Positions 1,323-61,464 of a stretch of DNA of 64,000 nucleotides are shown piece after piece. This DNA is from Harriotta raleighana. Its lineage: Eukaryota. Positions within the stretch are counted from its first letter, which is position 1. Every line of letters starts with the position of its first letter. Position numbers and translations under genes: made by a program. Under the pieces are notes generated by a model that was not told the DNA's origin, searched no databases, and worked only from the letters and a program-made list of their open reading frames with translations. The DNA lies in contig JBNZDD010013725.1 in assembly GCA_050575255.1 (NCBI GenBank), forward strand, positions 4,685,009-4,749,008, written 5' to 3'.

Positions 1323-1478
1323 TTTCCGATACGTTCTTCTGGCTGATCGAGTAGTTTGCTGAGAAGCCATCCCTGGCGATGGCAGTGTCGGTGTGTAATG
1401 TTAAAGACAGAATTCCTGTCAGCGACCGAATGTTCTCGGGTGCCTCCTGCCCACAGAAGCGGCCGATATGAAGACCAA
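1323..1478 (-). CDS. nrp1: Neuropilin-1 internal exon (equivalent to exon 5; end of CUB2/a2 domain)
   Basis: Translates VGLHIGRFCGQEAPENIRSLTGILSLTLHTDTAIARDGFSANYSISQKNVSE. Acceptor ttcctctgtttcag|TT, donor GAAA|gtgagt; 156 nt, phase 1-1. Confidence 0.96.
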
Positions 1479-1508: not shown

Positions 1509-1853
1509 TCGAATCCAGCCAGGCAAAACTTTGGGCAAGTTTCCTTACTTAACACACCTAATAATAATCCCTATTAACCATGGGCATGTTTCTTTACTCA
1601 ACACACTTAATAATAATCCCTAATATCTAGCCCATTAAACCTGTCCAGTAAGGTACCAATAATCCCTCAAAAAAACACAATAAACAAATTGCTCATTTTA
1701 ATCCACGACTGTTTGTGGGCCACTGCTGTGCGCAATTGGCTGCCATGTTTCACCCACAAATATACAGTCAGTTCACTTTACAGTGTATTCTGTGAAGCAC
1801 TTTGAGATGTCTACAAAATGTGAAATGCGCTACATCAAATGCAAAGATTATTA
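1509..1853 (+). mobile_element. Young tRNA-derived SINE, 5'-truncated at the B box, with internal duplication and foreign insertion
   Basis: tcgaatcc B-box remnant; body ttgggcaagtttccttact..ccacgactgtttgtggg; L2-type tail atcaaatgcaaagattatt. Starts about 30 nt from the exon 5 acceptor. Confidence 0.85.
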
Positions 1854-3480
1854 GTACAGTACAGTATATTACAAGGAACGGCAGAACTGTGGAAAATTTA
1901 ATAATTAAATTAGGAACACACAGAATTGGGAAATTTTCAGATCAGTTTTAATTTGAAAGATGATTGTGAAACTGTCTTCAAAATTAATGACTGAATTTCA
2001 GAATCCTCCAGAATCCTGAGCAACCTTAAATTTGAAGAAACAATGGTATCACGGCTCGGACCATGTGGAATTTGGGTCCTCAGAGACTGACTGCTGGGAA
2101 CTGAAGCATAGTTCACGGGGGTTTAGAAGACGTGGAGGAAGTGATTTTAAAATGTTAGGGAAGTGGAAAGAGGAGAGGGAGGTGGTGGTGTAAATAGAAA
2201 GGAAGAACAAAGGATTAGAAACCTTGTGAAAACAAATATCTATTAACTAGGAGTAGCTGTTGCTTGTTTTTGAAGCTTCATACTGGATTGTATCCAGTCC
2301 AATAGGTAAGTGACAGGATTAAAAGTAACAACACACTGAAATTATGTTTGGAGCTGACAGCCAAACAGTGTAAAATTAGTTTTTCACCGAGGATGTTTTT
2401 TTCAATAATACACCAACTGAAACAGAAGAATACATGAACCAACAAACTGGAGGGAAATAAGTGACTCAGCTCCCATTTTCTTTTGTCTGCCTAAACGGAA
2501 ACCTCGTCAAAGATTTGCAGACAAGATAAATTATGTTTCATATTCAAAACATTATCTAGAGATTGAGACTTTCAGGTTTGTTCCAGCCGGTAAGATTACA
2601 AATCTACATGAAAATCGACACCGTCAGTGCAAATCACAAGGGCATTATAAAGCCCAGGAGACACAGCGTCACATCTGAATCCTGCCAAACAATAGCTCCC
2701 GGCCATTCAGATGCAGAGTTTGAGAAACAAAACACACATTTTGAGAACTCAGGTCATGTATTGTTTATTAAAATCCTTTGGAATGTCTTTTAAATTCCAA
2801 ATGTTGGTTCTGCTCTGTTTTCAGTATAAATGTGAGGATTATTTCCTTGTAACCCCGAAGAGTTTTAAAGTCAAGAGATTCAAACTGAAGCTTTGGAAGT
2901 CCCTCCCTCTATCCCACTCATGTCCTCTTTTAGACTTTTAGATTGGGACTGAAGATCTTCCAATTCCACCTTGCTTACGCCAGCTTAGTGTCGAGCTCCA
3001 TCACTGTTAAGTTCTCTGGGATGCTATCCTGTGTGAGGGGCACTATATAAATGTAAGTTATTGTTGGGATAAATCCTTAGCTTCTTGAGAAGCTTTTTTG
3101 AGACGTCTTCTCAATGCAAAAAGCACCATATTAAACGCAAAGAATATTATTATTGCAATGGGTTCCAGGTGGAATCTAACAGCTGAGATCACCTTCTTTG
3201 CACTAATAGCTTGAGATGTGCTGATATACTGGTAGTAGTAGAAATTCTAGTAATGTGGTTGTTCAACAAAAATAATTAAATTCTTTAAAGCACTGGTCTC
3301 TGTACTCTCCTAAATCTGTTGCTTTATCCTTATAAAATCAAATGGAAAATGTTATAAATGCTGTGATATTTACTAACTCAGGGTAATTATATTATAATAT
3401 CTTAATGATAGATAGGGTTCAACAGAGGTTGGCTTACTGTCCTACCAAACGTGGATTAACAAACAATGGGTATTTTAATC

Positions 3481-4318: not shown

Positions 4319-4539
4319 TATTATTATGAAGCACTCTGGGCCGCTACACTGTGTGAGGGCCGCTATATGGATGCTATTACAGTATTAGTTTACTTTGTGT
4401 CTCACTGAGTCCACTGGGAATATTACTGGGTTTAATATTCAGCATTTTCTAACACGATTCGCTTAATAAGGAAACTGGAGATACCTCACACGCTGACTCG
4501 TTTCCTTACCCCACATGCTTGATAACAATCCCTCAAAGA

Positions 4540-14640: not shown

Positions 14641-16480
14641 CAATGAGGTGTCACTTTTGTTGACCAAATATTAAAATATTACTATATTGTAGAGCTTTAA
14701 AGGACTTTAAACCCTTAGCATAATCTATATACAGTACTGTAGGTACATTCCTCTGCTGACTAAAAGTTTCAGCATGCTGCTAACTCGTTTAATTATTTCA
14801 TCACATTTGACTGATAACAATCCTGACATTTGATATAGTGCCCGTTTTGTCAGGAGGATATCTCAAAGTGCTTCATCGGACCTACTGTAAAGTGTAGTGT
14901 TTGTGCATCTTGTAGGTAAACTTTCACCTGGGTATACAAGTTTACTCTTATAACATAGTACTTCAGAGGGTGTAGAGTTTCACAAAATGTTTAATTAAAT
15001 TTTAACTTTGAAATACATTTTCTATATTCTTAAATGAAACTTGCAGTAAAGCAGCTTCAAAATCAAACAGTGCATATATGGATTTGACAAGATTCTTGCG
15101 ACTATGAAATGTTACGTTAACAGAGTAAATCTATTCCCAGGTGGCATTTCTATCCAGATGTGTCTACTATTACTCCCAAGTCTCTTTCCTAATTCTCCCT
15201 GCTCCAGTTTGATTCCATTCACTGTGTACATAATTCACACATTTTTCTTCCACCCGTGTATAATTATTTGCATTTATCAGTGTTAAATTTCATTTCCCAT
15301 GTGTCTGTCCAATTACATAATAACTCTAAATCCTTTTGCAAATCTCTACCTGCTTCCTGTGGGTGAAACTCCCTCCCTCAACATCCATAGCTTTCAGCTA
15401 TACTCACCTCAAGGGCCTTTTTTGCACCTCTGGCATCCCTTTCAACCTGGTTTAGCAAATTCCTATTTTCCTGCTTGCGTTCTTTTCTTGCCTTTTCCCT
15501 GTCCTGGGATTGCTCGATGCTGACACCGGAGGCCTAAAATGGGAGCCTTTTCCAACTTTCAGCAATCCCAAGAAAATCCAATTCCAACATCCCTCATTCC
15601 GAGAAAATCCATAAAAATACATTACATTTCTGTGTGCTGATTGTCCCACCACCCAGTGACACTGGTGTAAGGCGCTGTTTCCACAGCACTTAAAAGCCAT
15701 TGAGATTTTTTTGGAGAGTTTATTATTACCTTACTGGACAGGTTTAATGGGCTAGATATTCCTGGCCCCAATTTACTCCCGGTTTTCTGGCCAACAATCC
15801 CCAAATCAAATTGGTCATTCACTCCATGGCTGTTTGTGGGACATTGTTGTGGCACAATTTGGCTGCTGTGTGTGACTATAAATACATAGTGAAAATACAT
15901 TAAAGTTGAATCCCGTGAAGCATTTTCAGACATCTTGGCGACATGATAAGAGGCTATTCCATATGCAAGAACTTTTTTGTATATTTTCTTATGATTTCAA
16001 TGTGTGCAGAATTCAGCCTCAATAATGCAACAGCTTTCACATCAGGAGGACATTCGAAAGCCATTCATATGATTTACTATTAGGTGCAGCGAATGTGTAT
16101 TATGAGGCAGGTTTTCCACAGCTCTTAAAAGGACCTTTAGGACTTATGGGGACTGGGCTAGGTGGTCAAATGTGGACTGTAATGTTCCACATAATATATT
16201 TATTCTTCAAGAACCTACCTAATTCCCTTTAACTGATGTGGTCAACTCAGCTTCTGCAGCTACTTGGAGCAATGTGTTCCACATTCTTTATGCATGAAAA
16301 AACATCTCTTCACTTACACTTTTTCTGTTTCTAGCAAAAACGAATTCAATGTTTTTGGTCCCTTTTTCGCTTCTTCACCAACCAGTGGATTTAATCGACT
16401 GCTAACTACTCTCTATTGACCTCCAGAGTAAATGTAACTCAGGAAATAATAACTATGAACAAAAATAATAAACCTTGCAT

Positions 16481-16760
16481 TGTGGAGTCCTGTGGTTCGA
16501 GCACTCGCCTTACAAGCGAGAAACTTGGGTTCGATTCCTGGCAGGTCAGGGTGAATCCTTAGGCAAGTTTCCTTACTCCACACGCCTAATAATAATCCCT
16601 CAACAAAAACAATAATAAATTGATCATTTCAATCCACGTCTGTTTGTGGGACACTACTGTGTGCAATTGGCTGCCTCGTTTCGTCCACAAATATACAGTC
16701 AATTCATTTTACAATATATTCTGTGAAGTGCCAAGGATTATTATTACTTTTATTATTATT
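16481..16760 (+). mobile_element. Young tRNA-derived SINE
   Basis: Head with anticodon-like stem-loop CTCGC-CTTACAA-GCGAG and B box ggttcgattcc; body; partly deleted tail. Confidence 0.9.
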
Positions 16761-21064: not shown

Positions 21065-22739
21065 TTGATAGTAATTACTTGCAATGACTTTTGAGATTGG
21101 TTGATGTGATAAGTGCTATCAAAATAATTTTATGAAAAATATTAAGGCAAGCTGATTCAAAAGAAGGTTGAGATCGTTTAAAGGATTTTATGGAAATTAT
21201 TAAAGGATTTCATGGCCATGGTCACAGTACATTTGTTTCTAACAGCTTGTTTTCATTGGAATTTAGAAATAATTGCTAAGTGAATCTGGAGTGCAACTGG
21301 CCAAAGTGACTTAAATGGAAAACTAAAAACATTTCGATTGCAATCTTCAAATTGTGCCAAAGTAACTTCACCTCTCAGTTGTTAGCCAAACTAAGTACAC
21401 AGTGACATTAACCACAAATGTACGGTGGGTAGAAAGAATATTAAAGCACTTGAAATACCCTGGACATGCTTAAAAACCCACCCACTGAAAAGCCGTTTCA
21501 GAAATATATTTGGCGGCAGAAAAACAGGATGTGGCTTAGCACTTTTGGCAGACAACTTGCAAATTAAATAATAAAAAAAAGACTTTGACCCTCTAAAGCG
21601 AGGTCAGCCAAACAACTTTAAAATCACACGTACTTTTATCAGACATCACAATCTTGCCTTGGAAAAAAAAACCTACCAACCTCGTTTTTGGACTTGAAAG
21701 GAGAAATGTATAAAGGAAAATGTACCACCAAGCAACTCCTTGGCTGCCACTGCAGCAAGATTTTATCTTATAAAGCTGAGCCATATACAATATAGCCCTG
21801 AACAGAGGTACTGTTCAGTGGTGCTTTGTGTGAATTCTAATAATAATAATGATTATCCTTACATTTGCTATAACTCCTTATCACATTGCTGAGCTGTCTC
21901 AAGGCATTTCACGCAATATAGTGTGAATTGACGGTATTTAGTGGGTGGAACGTGACAGCCAATTGCACACAGAGGTGTCACACAATCGGTTGAGTGAGTA
22001 AATTATTATTATATTATTTATTTATTGTTTAGTGATCATTATCCCTGGAAAGCGATCCACCAATCGACTAATAACCAGGTTCCTACTTACTGCCAGGTAA
22101 ACAAAGGCGTGTAAGGAAACTTGCCTAAGGGTTCTCAGACTTGAGATTTACTCAGAATTGTATTCAGCAATCACAAATGTACTCATGTATGAAACAAGAT
22201 TTAAAATGGTATGGGGGTGAAAGCCATCCATTAAATGTTCAATGCTTTCCCCCTTTACCCCCCTAGCCACCATTTCATAAGTAAAACTCATTAGTTCGGG
22301 CTCAGAGAAGGCAGATGAAAGTCTTTCCTTACAGCAGCCTCCGCGACAGCTCATTTCAATCCAGAAATGTTAGCATGGACAGATCACAGTAAGTTCAAAC
22401 AGCCACAATCTTGTCACGGTTTGATACAATCGTGACACAGGGCTGCTCATTTCAAGTACATTAGCCTCTCACCAACCCAGTTACAATGTTCTGGGTGCTA
22501 TGGAACTCGCTGGATTCCATGTTTTATTATCTCTGCTCCCAAATCGCTAATTTGGAGAGGGTGTTTTTTGTGGCAACAAACAAGAGTTCTTTTAAGTGAG
22601 ATAGAAAAAAAAACACTTCAAAAGAGCACAGGATATGGCAGCTGTCCATCAGACACACAATACGATTAACTAAAGAAACAGAGAGAACCTTCCTCGATCT
22701 TGAGGATTGGCATTTGAATGCAACTAAAAGGAATACAAA

Positions 22740-23020: not shown

Positions 23021-23395
23021 GTGAGGGGTACAGAAGACTACAAAAGAGCACAGGATACGACAGCAGCCCTTCAGACAAACAATATGGAAGCAGTAAAGAA
23101 GCAAGGGAGGCGTCATTCCGCCACCGCCCAACCACTAAACTCAGCTCAACAGCTTCCTCCAGGTCTTAAAATCAAAGCTGAGTCAGTTATCCAGAAAACA
23201 TAGCAGCACAATTTTTTTTTATTTTTTAAAGTATATCTTTATCTGCTATTGTGTATCAATCAGTAAAATTAGCACATCTTTGGATTTGTAAATTGGGTTT
23301 GACAAATGACAGAGGTTTTAAGTGGGGAGGGTATACAACACCACAGTGGCTTTAGTCACTGCCGATAGTTAAGAAATGGGTCTAAATGTGCAGTA

Positions 23396-28107: not shown

Positions 28108-29045
28108 AGAATCATAGAATTATACCGCACAGAAGGAGGCCATTTAGCCTATTGTATCTGTCCCAGCTCTTTGAAAAACGCCGTTGAAATCAATTCCACT
28201 TCCCTGCTTTCTCTCCTCCCCTGCTGTCTTAAAAGTTGTTATCGAATTGGCTTCCACCATGCTTTCAAGCAATATATTCCAGATCTGAATAACTTGCTGT
28301 GTGAAATAAATTCTTCTCACACCCCCACTCTATTTCTTTTAAATCAGTGTCTTTGGGTTTTTAACAGCTTTATCTACCTGTCCCACCACTTCAAATATTT
28401 ACTTATTAAAAAAACACAGGTCTCTCTGTTCCTTCACTCCCTTTTAAGATTCTACCATCTTGCTTATACTGCCTCTCCTCATTATTCCTCCCCAAATTTA
28501 TCCACATTAAACGTCATCTACCATGTGTCTGCCCATTTTACCAGTCTGCTGTCTACATCTTCTTGCGACCTCCTCACCGTTTTCTACTTTTGCTAGCTTT
28601 GTACCATCAGCAAACACGGAAATTAGTCACCCTAATATCCAAATCCAGGTCATTTAGATCAAAAACAGGAGTGGTCCCAAAACTGCCTCCTGGGGAACAC
28701 TACTGCACAATTCCCTCCAGTCAGAAAACAACTATTCACCACCTTTCTGTGCTTTCTGTCTACCAGCCAGTTCTGTATCCACGCTGCCACTCTCCCTTCA
28801 ATACCATAGCTTTCTATTTTGCTTACAAGTCTCTTATGTGGCACTTTATCAAATGCCTTTTGAAAATCCATATAAATTACATCAACTGCAGTGCATGCAT
28901 CCACCCTCTGTCACTTCATCAAAAAACTGTATCAGGTTTGTTAGACATGATTTGCCATTAACAAATCCATGTTGGGTGTTGTTTATTAACTCATATTTTT
29001 CTAAAGGAAAATTTATTTTGTCCCAGATTATAGTCTCTAGAAGTT
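28108..29045 (-). mobile_element. CR1 LINE fragment with degraded reverse transcriptase and 3' tail
   Basis: DVIYMDFQKAFDKVPHKRLVSKIESYGIEGRVAAWIQNWL (RT domain); tail gaatcatagaat..gaaggaggccatttagcc; internal deletions and frameshifts. Confidence 0.9.
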
Positions 29046-32000
29046 GTTTTTACTACCGACGTTAGGTTGTACTAGGAAACGTGGCGTAGAAAGTTTTTGA
29101 GAAATATTGCCTGGAGGTAATGATGACATGATTGAAGGAATTGGCTGTGGTGGAGGAGATAATGTTGAAGATGAGGAAGAAAACAGACTTTGTCAAGGAC
29201 TGGACTGCACTTATTTATTAAATGGGTTCAGTTCCTCCCGATAGTCTTTCTAACAGGTACAAGCTGACCGTGTTATAATGTGACCCGTTGTAGTGTGAGT
29301 GTAGTTGTAGGTTGTGACTCACCCAGACCACAAGTGCTGTACATCCTGCGATCCTCATCTGCAGGAAGTAACAACCACTGTACTTCCTGCGTGTAACATG
29401 CATTTGCACAGAGTACAAGGAAATGATGTGAGCGGTAACCTGATGACCCAGAATTGTCTACTGTGGCCTTTTTTAAGCACATGTTTTAGTTTATATGGAT
29501 TCAAACCACCATATTTCAATGGGTCCGCCCTGTAGCTATACTCTAAGTAAGCTCAATGGTTTTATTAAAAGTATCTTTTTAATGAACCATTAGTTGTGAA
29601 AATATCAATGCTTTAAATGGCTGCTATGGTTGCTGTTTAGGATCCTTAAATTAAAACTGAAAGCAGCCTATGAGGTCTGTGCTTTAAAGGCACATGAAAG
29701 CTACAAAATACAATCACTATCTAATAACACAGACATGCCATTAAAATGACACAAACCCACATCATTTGGAATAATCGATCGTGGACAGATTGCCGACCTC
29801 TTAGGTGTCACGGAGAGAGGGATTGAGGGAGAGAGAGAGAGACCGCAGAAAGTTTAGCTTCTGTTTTAAAAGCATGATCCACAGGTCTCGTCTTTTGTTC
29901 TTGTGGCTTTGGATGTCACTCGGTGAAGACTGGAGCCCCTGGAGTGAGTTATTTCAGTCAAAAGGTTAGACCATTCCTTAGAATATGGAGCAAAGTACCT
30001 CATGGGGTCGAAAATCAGTTATTCATGAATAAAGCGAGATTGTCAATTTGGATCACTCCAGGTTTGCAATTCAGTTCTCCAGTGGAGTGTTGATCTCCAG
30101 TTAAGGCTGCATTTCCTTATCCAGCGACAATCTCCATAGTAACAAGCAGAAGCTGGGTTGCCTGGTTGCGATTGGTTTGATGTTATGGAAAGCGTTGTTA
30201 AGTCGTTCTGAGAAGTTCAGACTAAAGGCATGAATATACACAGGTGGCTTTTCGATCTGCACTTAACTTGACTTAAGACTTCCCCTTCGCTCACAAAATG
30301 GCAAGTAGGTGCCCGGGATTGTATAGGACAGACACACTGAGACTCCCAATGTGTCAGTGGCATACATACATGGAACTCTCAAGTTCTATTTTGGCTGCTC
30401 TTGAGCATTGGTTTCTGCATGTGTCACAGACACGCGGCTGACCAAAAAACTGAGGTATGCTGGCAGGTCCCAAATAAATAAGTGTATAATTATACAATAC
30501 CCTCCCAATGTCAAATTTTCTGTATCAATTTCAGAAAATATTCTTATTTATTATGTTATTATTACTACATTATTATTACACAAATATTAGTACCCAAAAT
30601 ATACATACAGTCAATTCACTTTAGAGTAGATTCTGTGAAACACTTTGAGATGTCTAGAAGACGTGAAAAGCGCTATATCAAATATAGGGATTATTATTAT
30701 TATTATTTTTACTATTAGCTCTTGTTTCTCTCAATCAATTTATTCACTAAATATCCATCTCTTAAATCACCTGATGCAATTTATCCCAGCTCCCTAGACA
30801 GCTCTTTCACATCTTTTTCTATTTCTCCGTGTAGAGTAATTAATTATCAACTGTCCGTACACCAACCCATTTCTGAAGTTTAGTTTATGAAGGTATGTTA
30901 GGCTGCTGAAGAGATAATGAGCAAATTCATCAGGGTCCAGAGTGACATTATTTTTGTAGCAGTTCAGAGCATGCAGAATTTGGCATGCAGTCTTAACATT
31001 TAAATTGTTTTTTTCTCCAGTGCTCAAAAAAACTTATAGACAACCAGCTTCAAAATAAAGTCTGTGTTTGAAAGTTTTTGTTTGCTCCGAGACGAATAGG
31101 GTGAATCGAGATCCAGGTCAAATTTTACCCCCCAAGTTTGTGGTATTTCTTAATGAGGAAATTCCTTGATAAAGAATCACAAGAATTCCCATTGATCTGC
31201 ATACAGGAACTCAGCTCCAATGTGGATCTCCTCAGAGCAGAGTTCCCACGAGTCTGTTTGAGTAATTTTAGTCATCGTAAAGGGAACCCATCAGTATGAT
31301 TGCATATTAAAGAATTCTGTTAAGAAATACCATAAGTTAGACCACAGAAAGTTAGTGTCCTAAGAGAATGCACATTGGAAACCAATACTGTACAGTCAGG
31401 ATGCTCTTACTACAAACTATGTTAATTATGCAATGTTATTCCACTTAAATGTCCGTCGCCTGTCCCATCACTGGTAATTAAGCTTTCACCCTTTCCATCC
31501 CTACCTACACAACACATATAGTTATTGCACTCCACAGTACATCCTGTACAGCTCTTTGCACACCAAAGGTAGGGATTATTATTATTACTTTCTGGACCAC
31601 TGTTAAAGGCACCATATAAATATAAATTTATATTACATTATAAATGCTAAAACCCAGTTATAATTTGTTGAAATACACTCACAATCTACAATACATACCC
31701 TTCACCGATTCGGGGTAAATATTTGGATATCTCAATTGCAACACTGAGGAATGAAGATGCCTATCAGCAATGTAGACACCTCATTGTAAGTTAAATTTGC
31801 ACAATGTTATGACAAAGCGTGTATATACATGTTATCGCTGTTATTACATTCTTATCTTGACGTTCAATTCTTGTGGCAATATATTTTTTTAAAAGCCCTC
31901 GTAAGACATCGAATTAAATGTTGAAAGCAACTAGCAGTGTGGAATATAATTAGAGCTAAGAAGCTCCTTTTTACTCCGCATTTTAAATGTACCTGACTGA

Positions 32001-33789
32001 AATAACTCACCACAGGGGCTGAGAGACCCACCAGGGCACATCTGAAGTCAATGTTACAAAAGATTGCGGCCGCGCTTTTAAAAAGGAGTCTAAATTTACT
32101 TGCACTTTCTTGCTAAATTTCCTCTCAGAAAGCTCTTCATTCTCTGAGCTGCTGCAGGTCAGTCTGACTAGAATTGATTATTGTTCGTGATGTAGGTCAA
32201 CTCCTTTCAATGGCTTCTCTTACCCAGATCCATTCTTTTTCTAGTAGCTTTCAAACAACTTGAACCACAGTGATCCCATATCCTACATTCCCTGAGCCAT
32301 AATGCTGTATGGACCCTGGACAGGAACCTTTGGTTGCTGTTTATCATAATAATGTTTCACCCTGAATACCTACAGTCAATTCACTTTACAACATATTCTG
32401 TGAAGCGCTTTGAGCATATGTCTCAACTATGTGCTATATCACATGCAAAAGATTATTAATTATAATTATAATAATTGTTAATGATAATAATCCCCACTCT
32501 TGATATAGCTTTTTCATGTGGAAACTTTTCAAAAAGTGATTCACAGAATTTCTATATACTGTAATGTGCTGTTTGTGGGACACTGTGCGCAATTGACTGC
32601 TGCAATTCGTTCACAAAATGTACAGTCGATTCTCTTTACAGTAGATGCTGTGAGAGATGTCAAAGCCATGATAAATGCATGGATTATTATTATTAATCTT
32701 ATGTAGGTGCAGGCAATTTGCTCACAGCAGTGTCCCACAAACTGCCATGAGGATTGCTGGCCAGTATTTAACCCAAAGTTCCCGATTATAGTGAGTAGTC
32801 CAGATCATATTAAGTGTGAATTTACTACTTTTGGGACTGTTTTGCCACAAATCTTTTACAACATCCACCCAATCCATTTGAAAGATATAAGAGAGGAACG
32901 TTTAAGACCTTAACCTCTATGAATTATTGATGCTCTGTATCAGCATAGGAATCTGAACTTTCCATTTTACAACACACTCCTAAGGTTTGTGTCCTGTCAC
33001 TGAGGCCAAACTAAACATTACTTAAAATGAGTAAACAAATGAGCAATTTCTCTCATACTTTCACAAGTGTGTGTTTATTTTCCTGTTGCATTTCAATAAT
33101 GTACAGGGAAAAGAGATTATAAGAAGAATTTAAACAGACAAGAAGACTGAATGTTAACTGGATGTGCACAGTAGTCTTAAGTTAGCCACCGTCAAGTTAC
33201 AACTAGTTGAACAATAAGTACCTCCAATAATGTAGGCCACTCATTGCACTGATTTACAGTGTCAGCCTCGTCCTAGTGCGGGGCTGGAGCTCAAGAGGTG
33301 AGAGTGCTACCAACTGAGCTAGGATGACACGGCCTCTTTGATAAACATTTTGACATCTCTTCTAAAATATACAACTGGCTCGAAAAAACTACCGGTAAGA
33401 CAGTTAGGTTTCTGAAACACTTTAGCTTGAGGAGTAATTCTCCATATCAGGCACATTTCATTCGCTACAGATTGATAAATCCAATTTCAAGCTGCCTCCT
33501 GCTGAGGGTGGTGAATTCACCGAATCCAGAGAATTAACCCGCTGGTTTATAAGACAACTGAGTGTTCATTGTTGTGGACAGTTACATTTGAAAACCAATC
33601 CCTCTGTCATGCTTTCGAATGTTTGGTTTTATAAAATGATTTTGTCTTCACAGAGAAGCACATGGGCACTGTGCAGGTGGCACTGTATTAATGTGTGTCT
33701 AAGTGGAGATTGAATTAGAAAAGCTTTTTAGTGGAAGATAACCGCTATGAAATTGTAATAGGATTTATGACATGTAAACCTAGGAAACA

Positions 33790-34947: not shown

Positions 34948-35304
34948 TAATAATAATAATAAATAATCCTTGCATTTGATATAGCGCTTTTCACATCTTA
35001 TCAACGTCCCAAAGCGCTTCACAGAATATACTGTAAAGTGAATTGACTGTATATTTGTGGGCGGAACGCGGCAGCCAATTGCGCACAGCAGCGTCCCACA
35101 AACAGTCATAATAATAATAATAATAATAGATTGAAACGACCAATTTTATTATNGTATTTTTTTTGGAGGGATTATTATTAGGCATGTGGAGTAAGGAAAC
35201 TTGCCCAAGGTTTCGCCCTGATCTGCCTGGATTCGAACACAGGTCTCATGCTTGTAAGGCATGTAAAGCGAGTGCTCTAACCACTGAGCCACAGGAGCTC
35301 CACA
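34948..35304 (-). mobile_element. Young tRNA SINE, full length (youngest-looking subfamily), with internal (ATA)7
   Basis: Minus strand TGTGGAGCTCCTGTGGCTCAGTGGTTAGAGC..GTTCGAATCC; CpGs retained; near-identical to 49298-49637. Confidence 0.92.
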
Positions 35305-41838: not shown

Positions 41839-42063
41839 CTCCGGGAAATCCGTCCCAAATTTCCAGCCTGTCAAAGCGACACATTCCTTCCCGTGCATTG
41901 TTGTCCGGTTCCAAGTCAAAGCTTCCGAACTTCAGGAGAATCTCTGACATGACGGGCGCAAAGATCATGTACGTGCATTCCAAATTGTTGGGGTACTTTT
42001 CAGGGAATCCTGGAGATCGAATCTCCGCACTTTGCGAAGTGTAGTTCCTGGAACATTCGGGCC
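41839..42063 (-). CDS. nrp1: Neuropilin-1 internal exon (equivalent to exon 4; CUB2/a2 domain)
   Basis: Translates GPECSRNYTSQSAEIRSPGFPEKYPNNLECTYMIFAPVMSEILLKFGSFDLEPDNNAREGMCRFDRLEIWDGFPG. Acceptor ttttacattgcag|GG, donor GGAG|gtgag; 225 nt, phase 1-1, in frame with flanking exons. Confidence 0.97.
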
Positions 42064-43228: not shown

Positions 43229-43734
43229 GTGTAGCTTAGTGGTTAGAGCATTCGCCTTAGTAAAGCGAAAGACCTGGATTCGATTCCAGGCAGGGCAAAA
43301 TTTTACAAGGGCAAGTTTCCTTACTCCACAACCCTAATAATAATCCCTCCAATTTTTTTTTAAAATTGGTCATTTTCAATCCACAACTGTTTGTGGACAT
43401 TATTTGTGCAATTGGCTGCTGCGTTTCTCTCACAAAATATACAGTCAATTCACTTTACAGAATAGTACATACCATCGGTCACCCTAAATCCCCCCACTTT
43501 TTCTTACACCCTCCCCGTCCCCAACCCCAGCTCGGTTCTGAAACAATGACTGTCCAGTGCCTTGGGATGTCCTCCTGACGTGAAAGATGCTATACAAGTG
43601 TGATTTTGTTGTTGTATTCGGTGAAGCGCTTTGAGATGTCCAGAGGACGTGAAACGCACCATATCAAATGCAAGGATTACTACTGTATTATTATTATTAT
43701 TAATTCACGTCTCTTGTGCATCTGTGTAATGAAT
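43229..43734 (+). mobile_element. Young tRNA SINE interrupted by an L2 3' fragment (about 43471-43614) and carrying a 3' extension
   Basis: tgtagcttagtggttagagc..ttcgattcc head. The SINE body breaks at tttacagaata and resumes at tattcggtgaagcgc. Confidence 0.88.
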
Positions 43735-46530: not shown

Positions 46531-49297
46531 ACCTACTTTGAAGTATGCCCTGTGTCCTGTGTGTGTGTGGAAACGCCTCAGCAAGGTGACTGAGGTTGCT
46601 CACTGGTATCTCCAATAAATTGATAGGACAAATGAGAAAAGTGTCTTTTATGTACACGGACAGGAGATACTGGGTTCTAATTTGCAACGATTTCTAATGG
46701 GATTCCCTAATAAGGAAACAAAGTGCACCAAGGGGCATCCTGCTCTGAGGCAATCTACTTTCGGAGTGGAGATGCCTTTCGTCAGCGTGAAATCCGTGAC
46801 ATACATCTGGCAACTGTGAAAAAACCCTCACTTATCTTCCTAAACAGACTGTTTAAAATCTTTATTAACAAATATCACTCATAATCGGCACGTGTTAGAC
46901 CCAACTGTCAGGAAAGGAATATCCAAAGCCCTCTTTCAAAAACAGATTAAGGAGCTTGCTTTTCTAAATCGTGCACGAGAGAAAAAACAACAGAACGTAG
47001 AATAATTCAGTTATATCAGCAAAGCAGAATCCTATTATTTAAATGATGCAATCTGAGATAACCTCCAGTGTTTCCGGGCCATGAACAGGGTCATTCTGTT
47101 TCCAGCTCCTAATCTTTATGTATTATTTCTCCAGTTCCATTTTAAAATTCCTGATTTCTCTCCCTCTCTGTATTAAACTGCTACATAATTCATCTCTGGA
47201 GAGCAGCACTCCGCCCTCCCACTCACAGGGCTCACTCTGCCTCCCACCAGCAGTCTGGAGATAATACTCAGCTTCCGTTCAGTAACTGAAGACCAAAAGG
47301 AAACGGCTGTTGCTTGCGATTTCGATGCGTTTTCCTTATGAAGCGTCTAAGACATTAACTTACAAGTTGTAATTGTTAACTTTCTAAACCTCTGTGTCCC
47401 TCCACAAGATTGAGTCAAAATCCGCAGTAAATATGTCCACCTCTCCTGGCTCGCTGAGGTTCGGTTCTGGTCACCTGGACATGGGTCATAGCTGGACACC
47501 CGGAAGTATTTATTTACACAGAATATCTGATGCTGATTACCAGGAAGAATGGCAAATACCAGAATCCATTTAAGAAACAATTTGAAGCTGTGATGGGAAG
47601 AAAAGTTCTGGTCAACGTGACACTAAGTGGGCTGATCAGACTCTAGGGTCAATGCCAACTAGAACAAAGGTTCAGTCCTTTGCTTTACAGCCATGGGCTA
47701 AAGCCAGATAAACTAGGCTCACTCTTTAATCACGAAAAGAGATATCTCAGAACAGACATCATTGAGCGAGATACATAATGGAACAGAGGAAGCAATCTCA
47801 CCGATATAAATGGATGAGATCTGAATGAGCTTAGATATGAATGAATGTATATGTAAGGTGAGGACTTTGAAGTTGATACTAATGGGATCTCTAGTGACCT
47901 ATTTGCATCTTGTTAGACCAACAACAGCAATGGGGGTGGGAGGGTAGATCTCTCTCAAGGGAGGAGGGTACATGTGATCATGCAAAAACAGGCACTGTGT
48001 GAGTGGGAGGGAGGGCCAGTCTTATGATGAGACATGTAGCACTAAAGCACAGTTCAAAATGATGCTGGGCACCAGTTTCAGCCTTGCATAGCTACATTTG
48101 ATAATTGGACCCCAATATTGAAGAAAACCTCATTATTTTCACTGGTCACTAAGTCTGTGACAAGAGGTCATCAATTTAAGACAGTTAGCAAATAAGGAGG
48201 TTAGGATTTTTTTTCATGAACAGAGTATGCAATGCGCTGATACATTGACTGTCCAGCTCCTTGGGACATCCTCCTGACGTGAAAGGCACAATACAAGTAC
48301 TGTATTGTATAATTTTGTTGTCATTGCGGTTCTGCAGTAATTGAAGCAGAATCCATATTAGCACTCTAGATAGATACAACAGTAACAAATTATATTTGTA
48401 TAGTGCCTTTCACTCTGGGTGATCCAAGGCATTAGATAATCAAAGATTTGTACCTGAGCTTTGGAAGAATTGGAATCAGGAGCGATAGAGGGCATGGGGT
48501 GTGGGGGTAGGAGGATGACCAAAGGCTGGGTCAAAGAGAAGAGTCTTGAGACAGGCCTTGAAGGAGGCAAGCAGGGGGAAGAAGCAAAGATATCTGAAAG
48601 CAAGTAAACTACAGGGGGATAGAGAAGAGGCAGGATTAAATGTGATTAAAAGGATTGCTATTCAAAGTGCCAGCACAGACATGATGGGCCAAATAGCCTT
48701 CTGAGCTGTAAATTCCTATGGTTCTATGCTTCCAAAACAATATCCTCAACACAGCCCTCGATTTGTTCAGAAGCAAATTGTGACTCAAGAGGGTATTCTT
48801 CCAAGATCTGTTTATAAACTTGGCTCCCGTCTTTTTTTTTTAACTTGGGCAGCATTAAAGCTTAACAGAATCCAGACATCTTCAATGATGCCAAAGAAGA
48901 ATACAGTCCTCAATATTATTGTGAGGCTCCACCACCCCTCAGATGGTTAAGATTTCAATTTTCAATATCATTTATAATAATAAATCACAAATTTAGTGCT
49001 TAGAAATAGCGCTTAGAAATGCCAAAGTGCTTCATGGGGAATTGATATATTTTACCCGNTTTAGTGCTTAGAAATAGCGCTTAGAAATGCCAAAGTGCTT
49101 CATGGGGAATTGATATATTTTGCCCGCATAGATACAGTCAATTCACTTTACAGTATATTCTGTGAAGCGCTTTGAGATGTCTAGAAGACATGAAAAGCGC
49201 TATATCAAATGCAAGGATTATTATTATTTGTGTATTTGTTAGACCAATTTGGCAGTTATTTTTCTGCACATAGCAAGGTCCTGCAAACTGGGCTGAA

Positions 49298-49637
49298 ATA
49301 ATAATAAGAATAATAATCCTTGCATTTGATATAGCGCTTTTCACATCTTATCAACGTCCCAAAGCGCTTCACAGAATATACTGTAAAGTGAATTGACTGT
49401 ATATTTGTGGGCGGAACGCGGCCGCCAATTGCGCACAGCAGTGTCCCACAAACAGTCGTGGATTGAAATGACCAATTTTATTATTGTGGTTTTTTTTGGA
49501 GGGATTATTATTAGGCATGTGGAGTAAGGAAACTTGCCCAAGGTTTCACCCTGATCTGCCTGGATTCGAACACAGGTCTCATGCTTGTAAGGCTTGTAAG
49601 GCGAGTGCTCTAACCACTGAGCCACAGGAGCTCCACA
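49298..49637 (-). mobile_element. Young tRNA SINE, full length; an inverted partial copy lies at about 49125-49228
   Basis: Intact A box and near-consensus B box, body and (TTA)n tail. Confidence 0.92.
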
Positions 49638-49816
49638 ATGCAGTGGAGTCTGGATCTCACACTCATAGGGATTGAACTCACTAATTTCTGCACTAAAGGT
49701 GAGATTTGGTGCCCACTGAGCCAGACTGCTATTTCTAATTCTATAAGAGGCAGCAACAAAAAAACCTACGGGGTGCAAAGGTTTTGAGTCTTTTATTAAA
49801 TTGAAATACATCATCA

Positions 49817-50650: not shown

Positions 50651-50719
50651 TCAATGTTCACTATGCTACACAATAACTTTATTAAATTGAATTATCACCA
50701 TGACAATTTATTCGCTAGA

Positions 50720-51085
50720 GACGTTTAAGAGGGGACTTAATGGAGCTGTTAAAAATTATAAAAGGGTTCAACAAAGTTAACATAAATTCTGTAGTCTGTT
50801 CCCATTGGTTGTGAGTCCAGCACCAAGGGGGCATAATATAAATAGTGACTTGGAGATCTAAAAGAGAATTTACGATGAACTGCTTCATGCAGAGAGTAGT
50901 GAGATTCTAGAACTCGCTGCCTGAAGTGGTGGTTGAATCAAATAATATAGATGCATTCAAGAGAAAGCTCGACTCTTTTACGAGGGAGAGGTGAGTACTA
51001 GGGCTTGGGAGGGGATGAAGGAATGGGTTGAAGACTCATGTGGAATATAAACTGGTTGAGCCAGAAGGTCTGTTTCCTTGCTATA
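50720..51085 (+). mobile_element. CR1 3' fragment
   Basis: agacgtttaagaggggacttaat..gagagtagtgagattctagaactcgctgcctgaagtggtggt. Confidence 0.75.
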
Positions 51086-53584: not shown

Positions 53585-53766
53585 CTGTTTTGAAAACTTC
53601 GTAGCGGATGGAGAAGCCAGCTCCATGTGTTTCATAATCAGACACGAATTTCACAAACAACAGCGGCCCGGTGGAGATCTGAGGCGATGGTGCAATCTTC
53701 CCACAGAATTTGCCCAGAAGAGCTGCTTTCTCATCCCCACCATCCCGTACCTCCACATAGTCATAC
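53585..53766 (-). CDS. nrp1: Neuropilin-1 internal exon (equivalent to exon 3; C-terminal half of CUB1/a1 domain)
   Basis: Translates YDYVEVRDGGDEKAALLGKFCGKIAPSPQISTGPLLFVKFVSDYETHGAGFSIRYEVFKT. The SDYETHGAGFSIRYE motif is NRP1-type (NRP2 has SDYARQGAGFSLRYE). Acceptor tttttccctag|G, donor ACAG|gttg; 182 nt, phase 2 to phase 1. Confidence 0.97.
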
Positions 53767-55709: not shown

Positions 55710-56290
55710 TGGGGGAGAAAGGATCATTGAGAGTCGAACAAGATACTTAGAATCCTGATGGGCTTGGTGAGGTGAGAGTGTGCATCCATGGATGCTGGTG
55801 CTACCAATGCCTGTGGCGCTGGCTTGAGTCAATCAGCAGGTCCTCAGTCTTGCTGGCTTTCAGCTGTGGAAAGCTGTTTCTCATCCAAGAGTTGATGTCT
55901 GACAGGCAGTCTGTTAGGACGCCAGTTGTCTGTAAATCAAGGGTAGAATCAGAGAGAAAGAGTTGGGTATCATCCGCATACATGTGGAAGTTGACCCCAT
56001 GTCTGCATATGATGTCACCAAGGGGGAGCATGTAGAGATTGAAGAAGAGGGGACTAAGGACAGAGCCCTGAGGAACACTACATGAGATGGTCTGTGGGCT
56101 GGAAGAGAACCCGTTAGCGGAGACATATTGCATACGATGTGAGAGATAACACCTAAAACCAATCCAGGCAGAATCTTGAAGGTTGAGGTGAGAAGAAAGA
56201 TGGTGAAGTAGGATTGAGTGATCCACAATGTCGAAGACAGAAGAGGGAGCCCAGGTCGCAGTTGGACAAGATATCGTTTGTGACCAGTTT
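55710..56290 (-). mobile_element. L2 LINE reverse-transcriptase fragment
   Basis: VPQGSVLSPLFFNLYMLPLGDIICRHGVNFHMYADDTQL (PQG and YADD motifs). Confidence 0.93.
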
Positions 56291-58823
56291 CCGTGCTCTA
56301 GTCACGGAATTGCAGTTCAATGCCCTGGAACATCCTCCCAACATGATAGGCGCTGTACAAAAGTAAGCCTGTTGTTGTCGTTCTGCACAACACCAATTGA
56401 TTCTGCCCCTATGGCAGATAGAGGAAGGATATTTTACATTTTCAGAACTCTCTTTATGTGAAGCAATATTTTCTAATCTTAGTTCTAACCATCCTAGTTC
56501 TAAGTATCCTTCACCCTTTTAAATGGTGAAGGGTGTTTGGCATAAACATGATAAAGGCTACTGCAGGGTACTGGAGAGTGACAAGCAGCATGGAACCTTC
56601 AAGAAGAGAAAATACTGAAAGGGGATTGTCCTTGGACTCTGTTTCACAAGACAGCACAATAATCAGAGTCTTGGAACAAATACAGTACTTCTTATCACAT
56701 GCTGAAAAAATTCAACTGCAACAGCTTAAATGAAGGAAAACTCAACATGTGTGAAATACAGGCTCTAATGCCAATAATAGTAGTAATGCCAAACAACAGC
56801 GGTAGTGAAGGGAGACAGAAACTTGTGCTATGAAATCGTAGCAGTGAGAGTAGATGTGGTGATACACAGGTTCAAAATAAGCTACTAAAAGGTTAGCAAA
56901 AGATAGCTAGCAGAACATCAAAAATTAACAGCTAGAAGACAAGAACTTGGAGGTGGAAATTGGAATATCCATTACACAAAAATGTAATTGCTGCCTAGTA
57001 CTTCCATTTTTTGGGGGTGAAACGTGTGTTTTTTCCAATCATTATACTTTATAATATATCTTGTGAACTCCCCATGTCCAAGGTTCTTACACCAAATGTA
57101 AGAATTATTAATATTATTGCTATATCCATCCCAGCGATAATTACTGAAGTGGATACNGGGGGTGAAACGTGTGTTTTTTCCAATCATTATACTTTATAAT
57201 ATATCTTGTGAACTCCCCATGTGCAAGGTTCTACATCAAATGTAAGAATTATTAATATTATTGCTATATCCATCCCAGTGATAATTACTGAAGTGGATAC
57301 TTCAGTAATTCTTANCCCAGCGATAATTACTGAAGTGGATACGTTCAGAAATTCTTAATTTTCCAGCCTAAAATTTCCAAACTGAAAATTCCAAAAACAC
57401 AGTTTATTTCTTCTCTATTTTAATTAGAAAATCTTTGGTAAAAGAAATATCAAATGTGAGGATATGAAGTTGTAAAAATCAGAGCTCTCCCAGCCCAGTG
57501 GAGCAGGCGGGCCACCTAAAGAGGCATGTTTCTAAATTCTTATTAACTTGAACAATAACTCCTCCATTACCACATAATTGCAGATTGACTGAAAGGGCAC
57601 TTTCCATTAGTCAGCTGAAAGTAAATATTTATTTTTAAAAATTGTGCGTGCACAATAGACAAAATAGGCGCGCACTTATTAAAGCGCGCATGCGCACATG
57701 ACGTCAGTGACGTAAATGTGATGTCAGTGACGGGCTCCTGAGGAAAATAACACTACTCGCGAGGGTAGTGTTAAGGATCTCTGGGAAGAGATGCGCAGAT
57801 TGCAAAAAACGGACTGTCGCAGATGCCGGACTATAAGGTTTTCCAGAGTATCAGGTGCCGGATGAAAGGACTTTCTGGTGATAACAACCTTACATTAATA
57901 TAAACAGACTTCAATTGTAGCCTTAGGCATCCTGATATCAATTCTTACTTACTGCTTCCAGACACATAAGCTTAATTCCTTCTTGTCCCCATTGAGAGTT
58001 TCTCGCTAAGAACTGATTTGCCACAAAAGAAGCTTTATATCCTGGACGATGGTACAAATGTAAAAGCTCTTTGTCAAGATGATATAACATGCAGTGAATA
58101 ATATATATGCCGATAAGACTCCAGAGGCCTAAAATTCTTCATGGTCTGTACCGTACAAAGTCGTGCGATAAACCAGCTTCTGAAATAAGACAAAATGTAA
58201 GAATTTTATCAAATTCTATAGAATATTAAAATTTGAAGATAACAAGACAATGAGAAATGTCAAGCCCTGTCTTGTGATGTTACATACTGAACCTTCCAGT
58301 ACTAGATAGCCATGGGCCTTCCTTATTAACTGTTCAACTATGGGATCCATCACATGCCATTCCTAAAAATGTAGCTAACTTCTTTATCATGGGATTCCCC
58401 TTCATGAAGACTGAATCAAAAGATGCCTTATTTTTAGCGATCAGCATTAAAATAGACTTTCATGTTACACTGGCTCAATTATACAACTATGTTCTTTCCT
58501 CACCGAATAAAAGAAAATGGTCTTTTCTATAAAACAGGAAAATAAAGACAAAGGTCAGTACATAAGAGAAATAACAAACAGAACAGATGGAAACCAATTA
58601 GTGATTATGGAAGTGTGAAGTGGGATGATTGGCTGAGTTGACTTGTTTCAATGTACCAAATTGATTCTTAATTGAACTTATTCTCTTTTACAATCAGTAA
58701 ATTCATAGGAAGAGAAAAAAATTAATTTAGAAATCTATTGAGTGCATTCTATATAATAAATACAATGCATGGATTGTTCATTCAACACAGGATTCTTGCA
58801 TTTGCAGTGAATATACTGTAGCT

Positions 58824-58919
58824 TATTTCATGTTGGGAGGATGTCTCACAGGATTTGTGAAGTCTAGTGACCTCACTAGACTTCACAAATCCTGTGAGAC
58901 ATCCTCCCAACATGAAATA
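58824..58919. repeat. Perfect inverted repeat, 47-bp arms, 2-nt spacer
   Basis: tatttcatgttgggaggatgtctcacaggatttgtgaagtctagtga-cc-tcactagacttcacaaatcctgtgagacatcctcccaacatgaaata. Confidence 0.97.
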
Positions 58920-60449
58920 GGTATTTTGTACACAAACAAATGGTTTGTGTAGGGCTACAGTTTAATAATAATCCTTGCATTTGATAGAGCGTCTTATCAC
59001 ATCGTTAATACTTCTCAAAGCGCTGATCAGAATATATTGTAAAGTTGATTGACTATGGGTGAAACAGTCTCTAGATTTTGATGATCTTCATAAAATTGCT
59101 TAAATTTCTGTCTTGTAGAATATGACGTTAGCCGAATGGCTGATTGAATTAATGTTTTCTAACTCACTGCCAGACGTTCATTATTCTATATGAAACAGTG
59201 GGGTAACTGTGTGCTCAATTTCTAGTTCCAATGACTTATTAAAAAAACAAGAGCCGACTGTAATGGAAAGTGCCCTTTCAGTCGATCTGCAATTATGTGG
59301 TGATGGCGGAGTTTTCGTTCAAGTTAATAGGAATTTAGAAACAATAACATCTCCCTGCAGCTCCTTTAATCATTGTTGGTGATTAAATCCCATTTAATAC
59401 AAAGTTTGCACTACAAATATACAGTCATTCTATATGTCATATCATGCTGAGGTAATATGTCTTTACATTGAACCAAAGCACTAAAACATGTCAGGATGAA
59501 GGACAGGCTTATGCTGCTTTGTGTACTAAGGGCTGAATTTGTTGAGGTGGGCTCACTATCACTGCTCTGTTCGAGACATCTCCTGACACTGAATATTCAC
59601 GTCCACTGTTCCTTAGGACTCTGTCTTTAGCCCTTTTCTCTTCTCATCTACATGCGCCCACGTGGTGACATCATTTGCAGACCTGAAGGTTATCCTATTA
59701 TTTATCTAATTGGAGCTTCCAATGGCTTATTAGATAGACCCATTACAAGGTATGAAATCCGCTGTCCATGGAAGGTCCAAGATTCTTTACCTTAGGGGTG
59801 AAATTCCACCTGGTTCTACTTACAGATTTTTCCGTAGCATTTTAGATCATGCAAAATTTGGGCAATTATTAAGTTAGCTGTAATTTTGAAGCCAACCTTC
59901 GATAATTCTTTAAAAAAAACCAGAGAAACAGCTTTAAAATTCAGAGTGAATTTGCACGCTCTAAAAAATTTGAGAAAAATATCTCGAGTCTAGACTGAAT
60001 TTTTCCCCTGGCTGTATTGTAACGACAATTGGATTTGGAGCAAGAAACAAGCGGTTTCTGTTTGCAATAGCAATTCAGTGATCCCTGCTGGATAGTTCAT
60101 GTGTACAGACATTGGCTAAAGATAGGTTCAAACTTAGTTCTGATACTCCCACAGTTCCACAGCACAGCACTCTTCAGTTTACATACACATGTGAAGCTGA
60201 CTACGTCACGACTGACAAATCTTGTCCAGTCCTGGGCATGTTCTGCGTTGTAGGGCGGTGTTGTCCTTCAGATAAGATGTTAATTTCAGATTCTACCCAT
60301 CTATTTCATGCAAGGAGGATGTCTCAAAGCACTTCACAATATTAGCTGTAAAGTTTAATGACTTCCCATTTTGCAGTGAAGTAGAGAAGAAAATAAGACG
60401 AAAATCTTTCCAATCTAAGGTAACATAATTCTCAATATCATCTATGTTT

Positions 60450-61416: not shown

Positions 61417-61464
61417 GGTAGCTATCCTTTACTGTATTGTGCTATACAGTAAAGGATAGCTACC
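61417..61464. repeat. Perfect inverted repeat, 21-bp arms, 6-nt loop
   Basis: ggtagctatcctttactgtat-tgtgct-atacagtaaaggatagctacc. Confidence 0.97.

Follow-up and report, generated by a model that had tools for sequence, protein, structure and literature searches.

A 34-nt inverted copy of a distant intronic site within a SINE of the Harriotta raleighana neuropilin-1 gene: a candidate scar of templated repair

A SINE in an intron of the neuropilin-1 gene (NRP1) carries a tract of 34 nt that is the exact reverse complement of a site in the same intron, 14,105 nt away. We analyzed the 64-kb stretch of DNA that contains both sites (here referred to as the window) and favour, with moderate confidence, the reading that the tract is a neutral repair scar, namely a germline templated insertion that was primed on ectopic homeology and took the site at 15.7 kb as its donor. 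It would then be a well-preserved example of a known mutation class in the intron of a non-model vertebrate. An orphan SINE fragment beside the donor appears to have served as a landing pad, which would explain why the scar is visible. The features discussed below are collected in Table 1.

The inserted tract and its distant match

The insert and the donor agree at all 34 positions (34/34), and the expectation of such an inverted pair by chance is 3e-11. None of the 40 order-5 Markov simulations produced an exact inverted match of more than 22 nt, and none of 100 shuffles yielded two matches of the 34-mer. There is also no third copy in the window, where the runner-up ungapped match has 13 mismatches. 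Uniqueness, simulations and shuffles together exclude a chance origin of the pair. All nine other aligned copies of the host SINE lack the 34-mer (additional 3'-only fragments were left out of this alignment), while the SINE sequence is uninterrupted on either side of the insert. Together with the two bases CC that follow it, the insert amounts to 36 nt and is AT-rich, with a GC content of 38%.

A 14-kb inversion with duplications from staggered breaks was rejected, as the SINE is continuous across the insert. A vector or prokaryotic source was likewise rejected, since neither 72,556 plasmid records nor the prokaryotic genome set contained a match to the insert.

Table 1. Positions of the insert, its donor and the surrounding features in the window; the exon numbers are those we assume from human NRP1.
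Feature	Position	Strand	Remark
NRP1 exon, 156 nt (exon 5)	1323-1478	-	second half of CUB2
NRP1 exon, 225 nt (exon 4)	41839-42063	-	
NRP1 exon, 182 nt (exon 3)	53585-53766	-	
Host SINE S1, tRNA-headed, 5'-truncated	1509-1856	+	antisense to NRP1
Older two-unit duplication in the SINE head	1524-1621	+	period 49 nt, units 11-13% apart
Left copy of the 10-nt duplication (SINE linker)	1612-1621	+	
Inserted 34-nt tract	1622-1655	+	exact reverse complement of 15727-15760
Junction bases CC	1656-1657	+	donor reads AT; complete a 6-nt palindrome, 1652-1657
Right copy of the 10-nt duplication	1658-1667	+	homeology with the donor flank begins here and reaches 1675
CR1-like LINE reverse transcriptase remnant	15156-15347	-	about 380 nt from the donor
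Orphan S1-linker look-alike	15706-15728 (loosely to 15699)	-	putative landing pad
Donor of the 34-mer	15727-15760	-	no repeat family assigned from window data
Older SINE S2, related to S1, 5'-truncated	15773-15977	+	profile begins 13 nt past the donor
Other broken LINE reverse transcriptase remnants, CR1-like	28497-28965; 50719-51009	-; +	
Broken LINE reverse transcriptase remnant, more distant	55960-56235	-	
Single-N joins	18123, 18462, 19131, 19177, 35153, 49059, 57157, 57315		near-identical duplicated flanks at 6 of 8

Gene setting

Three exons on the minus strand, each with AG and GT ends, have neuropilin-1 as their best match among solved structures. Both arms lie inside the intron 1479-41838 (40,360 nt), which precedes the third NRP1 exon of the window; the insert lies 143 nt away from that exon, and 26 kb separate the donor from the upstream 5' splice site.

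The acceptor of this exon (1474-1497) has a direct copy at 2412-2435, 938 nt upstream in the intron, which is identical at 23 of 24 positions and covers the pyrimidine tract, the AG and the first exon bases (14 pyrimidines of 18, vs 13). Judged by its sequence, the copy might act as a decoy or a cryptic 3' splice site. Between the two acceptors lies the insert.

The host SINE and its linker

Compared with the leave-one-out consensus, the body of the host SINE (family S1) shows differences at 16 of 161 positions, or 7.5% without CpG-type changes. Rfam tRNA matches are present in the heads of two sister copies (16486-16549 and 43232-43289). By the appearance of their sequences, S1 and the older S2 are presumably SINEs of the Deu type.

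The linker of S1 is the reverse complement of its own 3' tail, and the two form a 10-bp pairing in the predicted RNA fold (e.g. 49303-49630). The youngest copies of the family are 49115-49640 and 34957-35296, with 34962-35072 and 49312-49422 exact over 111 nt, and a tail-to-tail pair (49115-49226 / 49306-49629) contains exact inverted runs of 43 and 35 nt. In an older copy on the minus strand (21845-22136), the same linker is interrupted at its start by an insert of 64 nt. The window yielded no source for this second insert, and its likeness to the 34-mer, a post hoc comparison, is weak (18 of 1000 shuffles were as good). Besides, an orphan S1 linker fragment of 38 nt lies at 4500-4538 on the plus strand; the head of a full S1 copy follows 8 nt downstream. 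In total, the window holds two orphan linker fragments, and insertions of at least 30 nt occur at the linker in 2 of the 11 linker-spanning S1 loci, which is a raw count without a null.

Two unlike junctions

The insertion point is flanked by a duplication of 10 nt of the linker, and the extra CC stands between the insert and the right copy. The two junctions are not alike. At the right one, the 2-nt mismatch of CC vs AT is followed by homeology to the donor flank over about 20 nt, so that the extended alignment of 1622-1675 with 15760-15707 is identical at 49 of 54 positions. At the left one there is zero microhomology with the donor. The small palindrome that CC completes would result if synthesis switched briefly to the opposite strand, but the chance of such a palindrome is 1 in 16. 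As for DNA hairpins, only weak ones are predicted at the insert or the donor site (-5.6 to -7.3 kcal/mol).

The donor flank 15706-15728 agrees with the linker of the youngest S1 copies at 21 of 23 positions and is in register with the insertion point. Twelve sites in the window are within six mismatches of the young linker; eleven of them are S1 linkers or a SINE tail, and the remaining one is the donor flank. A linker site with at most two mismatches appeared in 0 of 90 simulated windows, which were trained on the window with the S1 heads masked. Because no simulated window came as close to the young linker, the donor flank is probably an orphan S1 fragment rather than a chance resemblance.

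Predicted hybrid energies rank the donor in opposite ways for two probes. Once the S1 linkers are masked, a 23-nt probe of the young linker ranks the donor flank first, whereas for a primer made of the 18 nt that form the right flank today the donor falls outside the 12 best sites (-9.4 vs -12.4 kcal/mol for the best). The landing-pad argument therefore needs a pre-insertion flank that was longer and consensus-like. These energies were unchanged by a setting intended to bar G-T pairs.

An earlier note on this DNA had been written from the letters alone, and most of its description of the site held. The exact 34-nt inverted copy, its absence from the sister SINE copies and the flanking duplication of aataatccct were all confirmed, and so was the position of both halves in one intron, for which it had given about 145 nt from the acceptor of exon 5. 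The internal tandem duplication of roughly 40 nt that it had described does exist, with a longer period (Table 1), and its units are diverged, at 5 of 45 positions (BLAST) or with 6 mismatches (global alignment); it was not among the repeats listed by Tandem Repeats Finder. The ataat microhomology was understated in view of the extended match, and the junction itself carries a mismatch.

Direction and age of the copy

The donor match terminates precisely at the junction of SINE and insert (15760). Such a stop is required if 15727-15760 was the source and is a coincidence otherwise, so that the alignment supports copying from the 15.7-kb site into the SINE. The reverse direction is very unlikely. 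In that case the SINE would have gained the 34-mer from elsewhere, and the 34-mer with its right flank would then have been copied to 15706-15760, a single step that would account for the orphan linker there. However, the copy would have had to stop exactly at the left junction, the flanks would have diverged at five positions while the 34-mer stayed perfect, and the second site has consensus bases where the SINE has CC.

If the pair were as old as the SINE, a divergence of 15-20% would be expected, under which 34 exact matches have p = 0.004-0.0005. Since a perfect 34 nt is improbable at such divergence, the insert appears to be fairly young and younger than its host. This argument is softer than it looks, for a mismatch defines the end of the tract and perfect matches are preferentially noticed. 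In fact, a Fisher test against the old duplication gives p 0.034 with 0/34 differences but 0.27 with 2/41, when CC is counted as later mutations. The young age of the insert disfavours a chimera formed during insertion of the SINE, and this candidate was set aside.

The donor site and its surroundings

The donor lies among repeat remnants. We rejected it as the 5' part of S2, because its register in the multiple alignment is weak and the profile built without the donor starts only at 15773. A coding remnant of CR1 was not supported either: against one named reference the donor scored 17, below the shuffle mean of 21, and 58 of 60 shuffles were as good, while the positive control reached 148 against a shuffle maximum of 38. 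The CR1 reading had been suggested by translated frames. For a CR1 fragment in the window the best named match came from a bamboo shark, the one search result that hints at a cartilaginous fish. The stretch 15385-15540 was not supported as CR1 either, with 10 of 60 shuffles as good against one reference, and CR1 was confirmed only at 15156-15347, by two named proteins out of 42 matches. A read-through search gave 838 candidates, none of them at E 0.001, and Pfam gave one sub-threshold match.

A direct repeat (15678-15696 / 16113-16131, 18 of 19 positions) brackets 416 nt that contain the donor, the linker look-alike and two SINE fragments. None of 500 local shuffles matched it, yet a window-wide null gives several such scores. 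By sequence, it could be an old target-site duplication.

These surroundings bear on another explanation, by which the 34-mer plus linker would be one unit of a low-copy or young repeat, e.g. a SINE variant, and the two sites would be siblings from a third source. The donor flank is non-randomly S1-like and is closer to the youngest S1 copies than the recipient flank (2 vs 4 ungapped mismatches). Moreover, the donor sits amid repeat remnants and inside the 19-nt direct repeat, and a family with one copy per 100-200 kb needs no third copy in 64 kb. Nevertheless, we consider it unlikely. The window has no third copy with fewer than 13 mismatches, the S2 profile leaves the donor uncovered, the CR1 reading failed, and the match ends at the recipient junction. 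Furthermore, the five differences of the pair are all confined to the final 23 of 57 positions (p 0.008; 0.02 with CC as one event, which makes four events), and such clustering argues against a single shared unit decaying evenly.

How the insert may have formed

The insert, the duplication, the homeology on the right and the non-homology on the left are observed, and from them we infer the following course for the favoured templated insertion. Well after the arrival of the SINE, a break or a stalled fork would have occurred in the AAT-rich linker with its ends offset, so that both retained the 10-nt word. The 3' end of the right-hand fragment would have annealed to the inverted linker look-alike at 15706-15728, and synthesis would then have continued for 34 nt into non-SINE DNA, because the look-alike is only 23-30 nt long. 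The nascent strand would have been released and joined to the left end without microhomology, the CC bases being altered at this joining or later. Overall, it would be template switching or an aborted ectopic strand invasion (MMBIR/SDSA-like) that was completed by end joining, and a helix in the pre-mRNA would be its by-product.

Germline templated insertions with microhomeology are documented in PMC8421209 and PMC5110952, which, like the other papers below, are cited from excerpts. Several points speak against this templated insertion. First, a linker look-alike at 15706-15728 must be assumed to have pre-existed, and its origin is unexplained. Second, a nearer true inverted linker of S1 (10594, 9 kb from the insert) is not the visible template. 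Third, simple extension does not predict CC. Fourth, the left junction has no microhomology, unlike most MMBIR-type junctions, 138 of 155 of which carry it in the excerpted PMC8421209.

The earlier note had read the tract as a repair event templated at a distance and had named polymerase-theta end joining or replication template switching. Distant templating by repair remains the best reading and its direction is supported, but the polymerase-theta label fits poorly. As excerpted, PMC7165422 places the templates of this enzyme at most 50 bp from the break, with a first tract rarely longer than 10 bp, and PMC11541566 reports templates that peak within 20 bp and microhomologies of 2-3 bp. A template 14.1 kb away, a tract of 34 nt and homeology of about 20 nt on the right and 0 on the left are outside these published ranges. 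Strict polymerase-theta end joining with a rare distant template would agree with the AT-rich insert, the altered junction bases and the short junction palindrome, inverse insertions of palindrome type being described in the excerpt of PMC11541566. Distant templates would also be undercounted, because both studies, as excerpted, searched only locally. All considered, it is quite improbable here, and template switching in replication or repair fits better. A literature search on the template distances of microinsertions found no match.

The spatial contact between the two sites that the earlier note had deduced is one possible route but not the sole one, as the orientation also permits a nascent transcript as template. 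The right-hand 3' end would then have been placed on the nascent NRP1 pre-mRNA, from which 34 nt were copied by a reverse transcriptase, perhaps LINE ORF2 or a polymerase of the host; L2 and CR1 are the LINE types seen in the window. This pre-mRNA would still be held by RNA polymerase close to the exon and would carry the donor, transcribed 14 kb earlier, and DNA-DNA contact would be unnecessary. The donor is upstream in the transcript and in the same intron, and the pre-mRNA strand complements the end with the long homeology, but about one in four DNA templates would satisfy these three constraints too, which therefore shift the odds only modestly. A short duplication with direct joining of the far end is a LINE-like geometry according to the excerpted PMC4245944. 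By the sizes in that excerpt, however, 10 nt misses the 3-5 bp peak of L2/CR1, though it comes near the 10-12 of RTE. Insertions and break repair templated by RNA have been described in the excerpts of PMC5110952 and PMC12065846, whereas the present insert has neither poly(A) nor a polyadenylation signal. We regard this templating by RNA in cis as rather unlikely. A special form of it, with capture from nascent pre-mRNA at a SINE linker that mirrors the SINE tail and is a recurrent site of breaks or priming, seems unlikely to us. In a literature search on insertions from nascent RNA in cis, the term 'templated insertions' appeared in none among the matches listed, which does not imply its absence from print.

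If capture of RNA in cis were true, each event would write a perfect long-range RNA helix into an intron, and it would be a source of new intronic pairings. If donors genome-wide were biased to upstream positions in the same intron and to the transcript strand, this would be population-level evidence for germline RNA-templated repair in cis and also a route to new long-range RNA helices.

Comparison with known systems

We compared the insert with the classes described in the available excerpts of published studies. It resembles MMBIR-linked templated insertions (MMB-TI; PMC8421209) in its short tract from an inverted template, the return to the locus, the microhomeology at one junction and the occurrence as germline variants of at least 25 bp. 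As in MMBIR-type events, the tract comes from another site and the sequence returns to the locus, the donor being unique within 64 kb. Unlike MMB-TI, which PMC8421209 as excerpted surveyed within 100 bp, the present insert has its template 14.1 kb away, with about 20 nt of priming homeology at one junction and none at the other.

Templated sequence insertion polymorphisms (TSIP; PMC5110952, as excerpted), of which class 1 is LINE-mediated and class 2 a repair patch, likewise have a distant intact donor, intronic ones included, with a duplication of at least 5 bp in class 1 and homology or odd bases at the junction in class 2. In contrast to class 1 of that excerpt, the present insert lacks poly(A), a polyadenylation signal and a TTTT/A site; the A7 run near it belongs to the SINE consensus and is not a poly(A) of the insert. 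In contrast to class 2, for which the excerpted PMC5110952 gives microhomology, a microdeletion or untemplated bases and no duplication, it has a 10-nt duplication alongside junction bases and homeology. It is thus intermediate between the two classes, with the duplication of class 1 and, as in class 2, no poly(A). Donors of TSIP are mostly far away in the excerpted PMC5110952, whereas here the donor is in the same intron. TSIP are also polymorphic among individuals; the analysis covered one sequence.

Polymerase-theta templated insertions (TINS; PMC7165422, PMC11541566, both as excerpted) are also templated, AT-rich and inverted with an altered junction, but the template distance, tract length and homology length found here are far outside the ranges of these excerpts. 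Finally, the SINEs themselves are like the DeuSINEs of fishes (PMC4824008, as excerpted) in their tRNA-derived head, a central body shared by two families and a simple-repeat tail.

RNA pairing and splicing

The earlier note had further proposed that the two arms could pair in the pre-mRNA as an RNA bridge that loops out 14 kb. An effect of such a bridge on exon splicing is not supported by our analysis, and we give it very little credence. The helix itself could form: its predicted energy is -59.5 kcal/mol over 34 bp and -73.1 over 54 bp, whereas local opening of the arms would cost 15.1 and 11.9 kcal/mol (27 in total), all of these exclusive of loop closure. Among the perfect inverted stems of the intron, only two are longer than the 34-bp one, with 43 and 36 bp. 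The stronger helices of the host SINE do not forbid it, because they do not overlap the 34-nt arm. Functional pairings across 9-10 kb are known from the excerpted PMC8052449.

On the other hand, 103 of the 139 inverted pairs that BLAST found in the intron are predicted to be more stable than the 34-bp helix, and 88 of the 139 more stable than the 54-bp helix. Seven of the 12 pairs of the host SINE are also predicted to be more stable, including one of about 200 bp that is only 8.6 kb away. According to these models, the intron is already full of comparable pairings, and the bridge is thermodynamically possible but unremarkable. The perfect identity of the arms is explained by recent copying, and the loop-out would leave about 26 kb of intron. 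We scanned 1479-1760 (282 nt) and 15550-15950 (401 nt) for TGCATG/GCATG, which we take to be the RBFOX-type motif and the only one scanned, and found none.

Bridges such as that of ENAH (PMC8052449, as excerpted) are similar in that complementary intronic arms lie kilobases apart with one of them near an exon. They are described in that excerpt as conserved, non-repeat and 10-20 nt long; a regulator is bound no more than 50 nt from one arm, and the exon lies no farther than that from the other. Here, 143 nt separate the arm from the exon, which exceeds the 50-nt criterion of the excerpted PMC8052449. The pair is young, one arm is within a SINE, and neither the exon distance nor the scan for the RBFOX-type motif gave a mark of such a bridge. 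Nothing in these predictions suggests that the insert regulates splicing.

Other copies, repeats and joins in the window

Self-similar repeat, made up of S1, S2 and LINE remnants, accounts for a quarter of the window. Two-copy matches outside these families with a score of at least 18 number 14, compared with 0 in 20 simulations; seven are duplicates beside single-N joins, one is the 34-mer pair, and the remainder include the acceptor copy at 2412-2435 and the inverted and direct pairs described below. Because of the other above-chance matches, local copying seems commonplace here. The 34-mer pair is the most distant of the 14 and the sole perfect one at long range. Some of the 14 may be rare repeats.

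The single-N joins raise the question of an assembly or library artefact. There are eight in the window, six of which have duplicated flanks, and this suggests a short-read scaffold with uncollapsed overlaps, which scaffolders are known to leave. The tandem repeats at these joins are probably such overlaps and not biology. For the insert itself an artefact is highly improbable. No N lies closer than 16.5 kb to the insert or 2.4 kb to the donor, and a misjoin in the graph needs a shared word at both junctions, whereas the left one has none and the right one a 2-nt mismatch. The plasmid and prokaryotic searches also gave no sign of vector or adaptor there.

Several further pairs were observed in the window. 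An inverted pair of 83 nt with 6 mismatches (57527-57609 / 59261-59343), 1.7 kb apart, may be the terminal repeats that belong to a DNA element, or else a further templated copy. A second inverted pair (29934-29960 / 31994-32020) is identical at 25 of 27 positions and 2 kb apart, and a direct pair (22612-22662 / 23034-23084) is identical at 43 of 51 positions (44-51 nt) and 0.4 kb apart. Perfect hairpins are present at 58824-58919 (47 bp with a 2-nt loop, within a SINE tail remnant) and at 61417-61464 (21 bp with a 6-nt loop).
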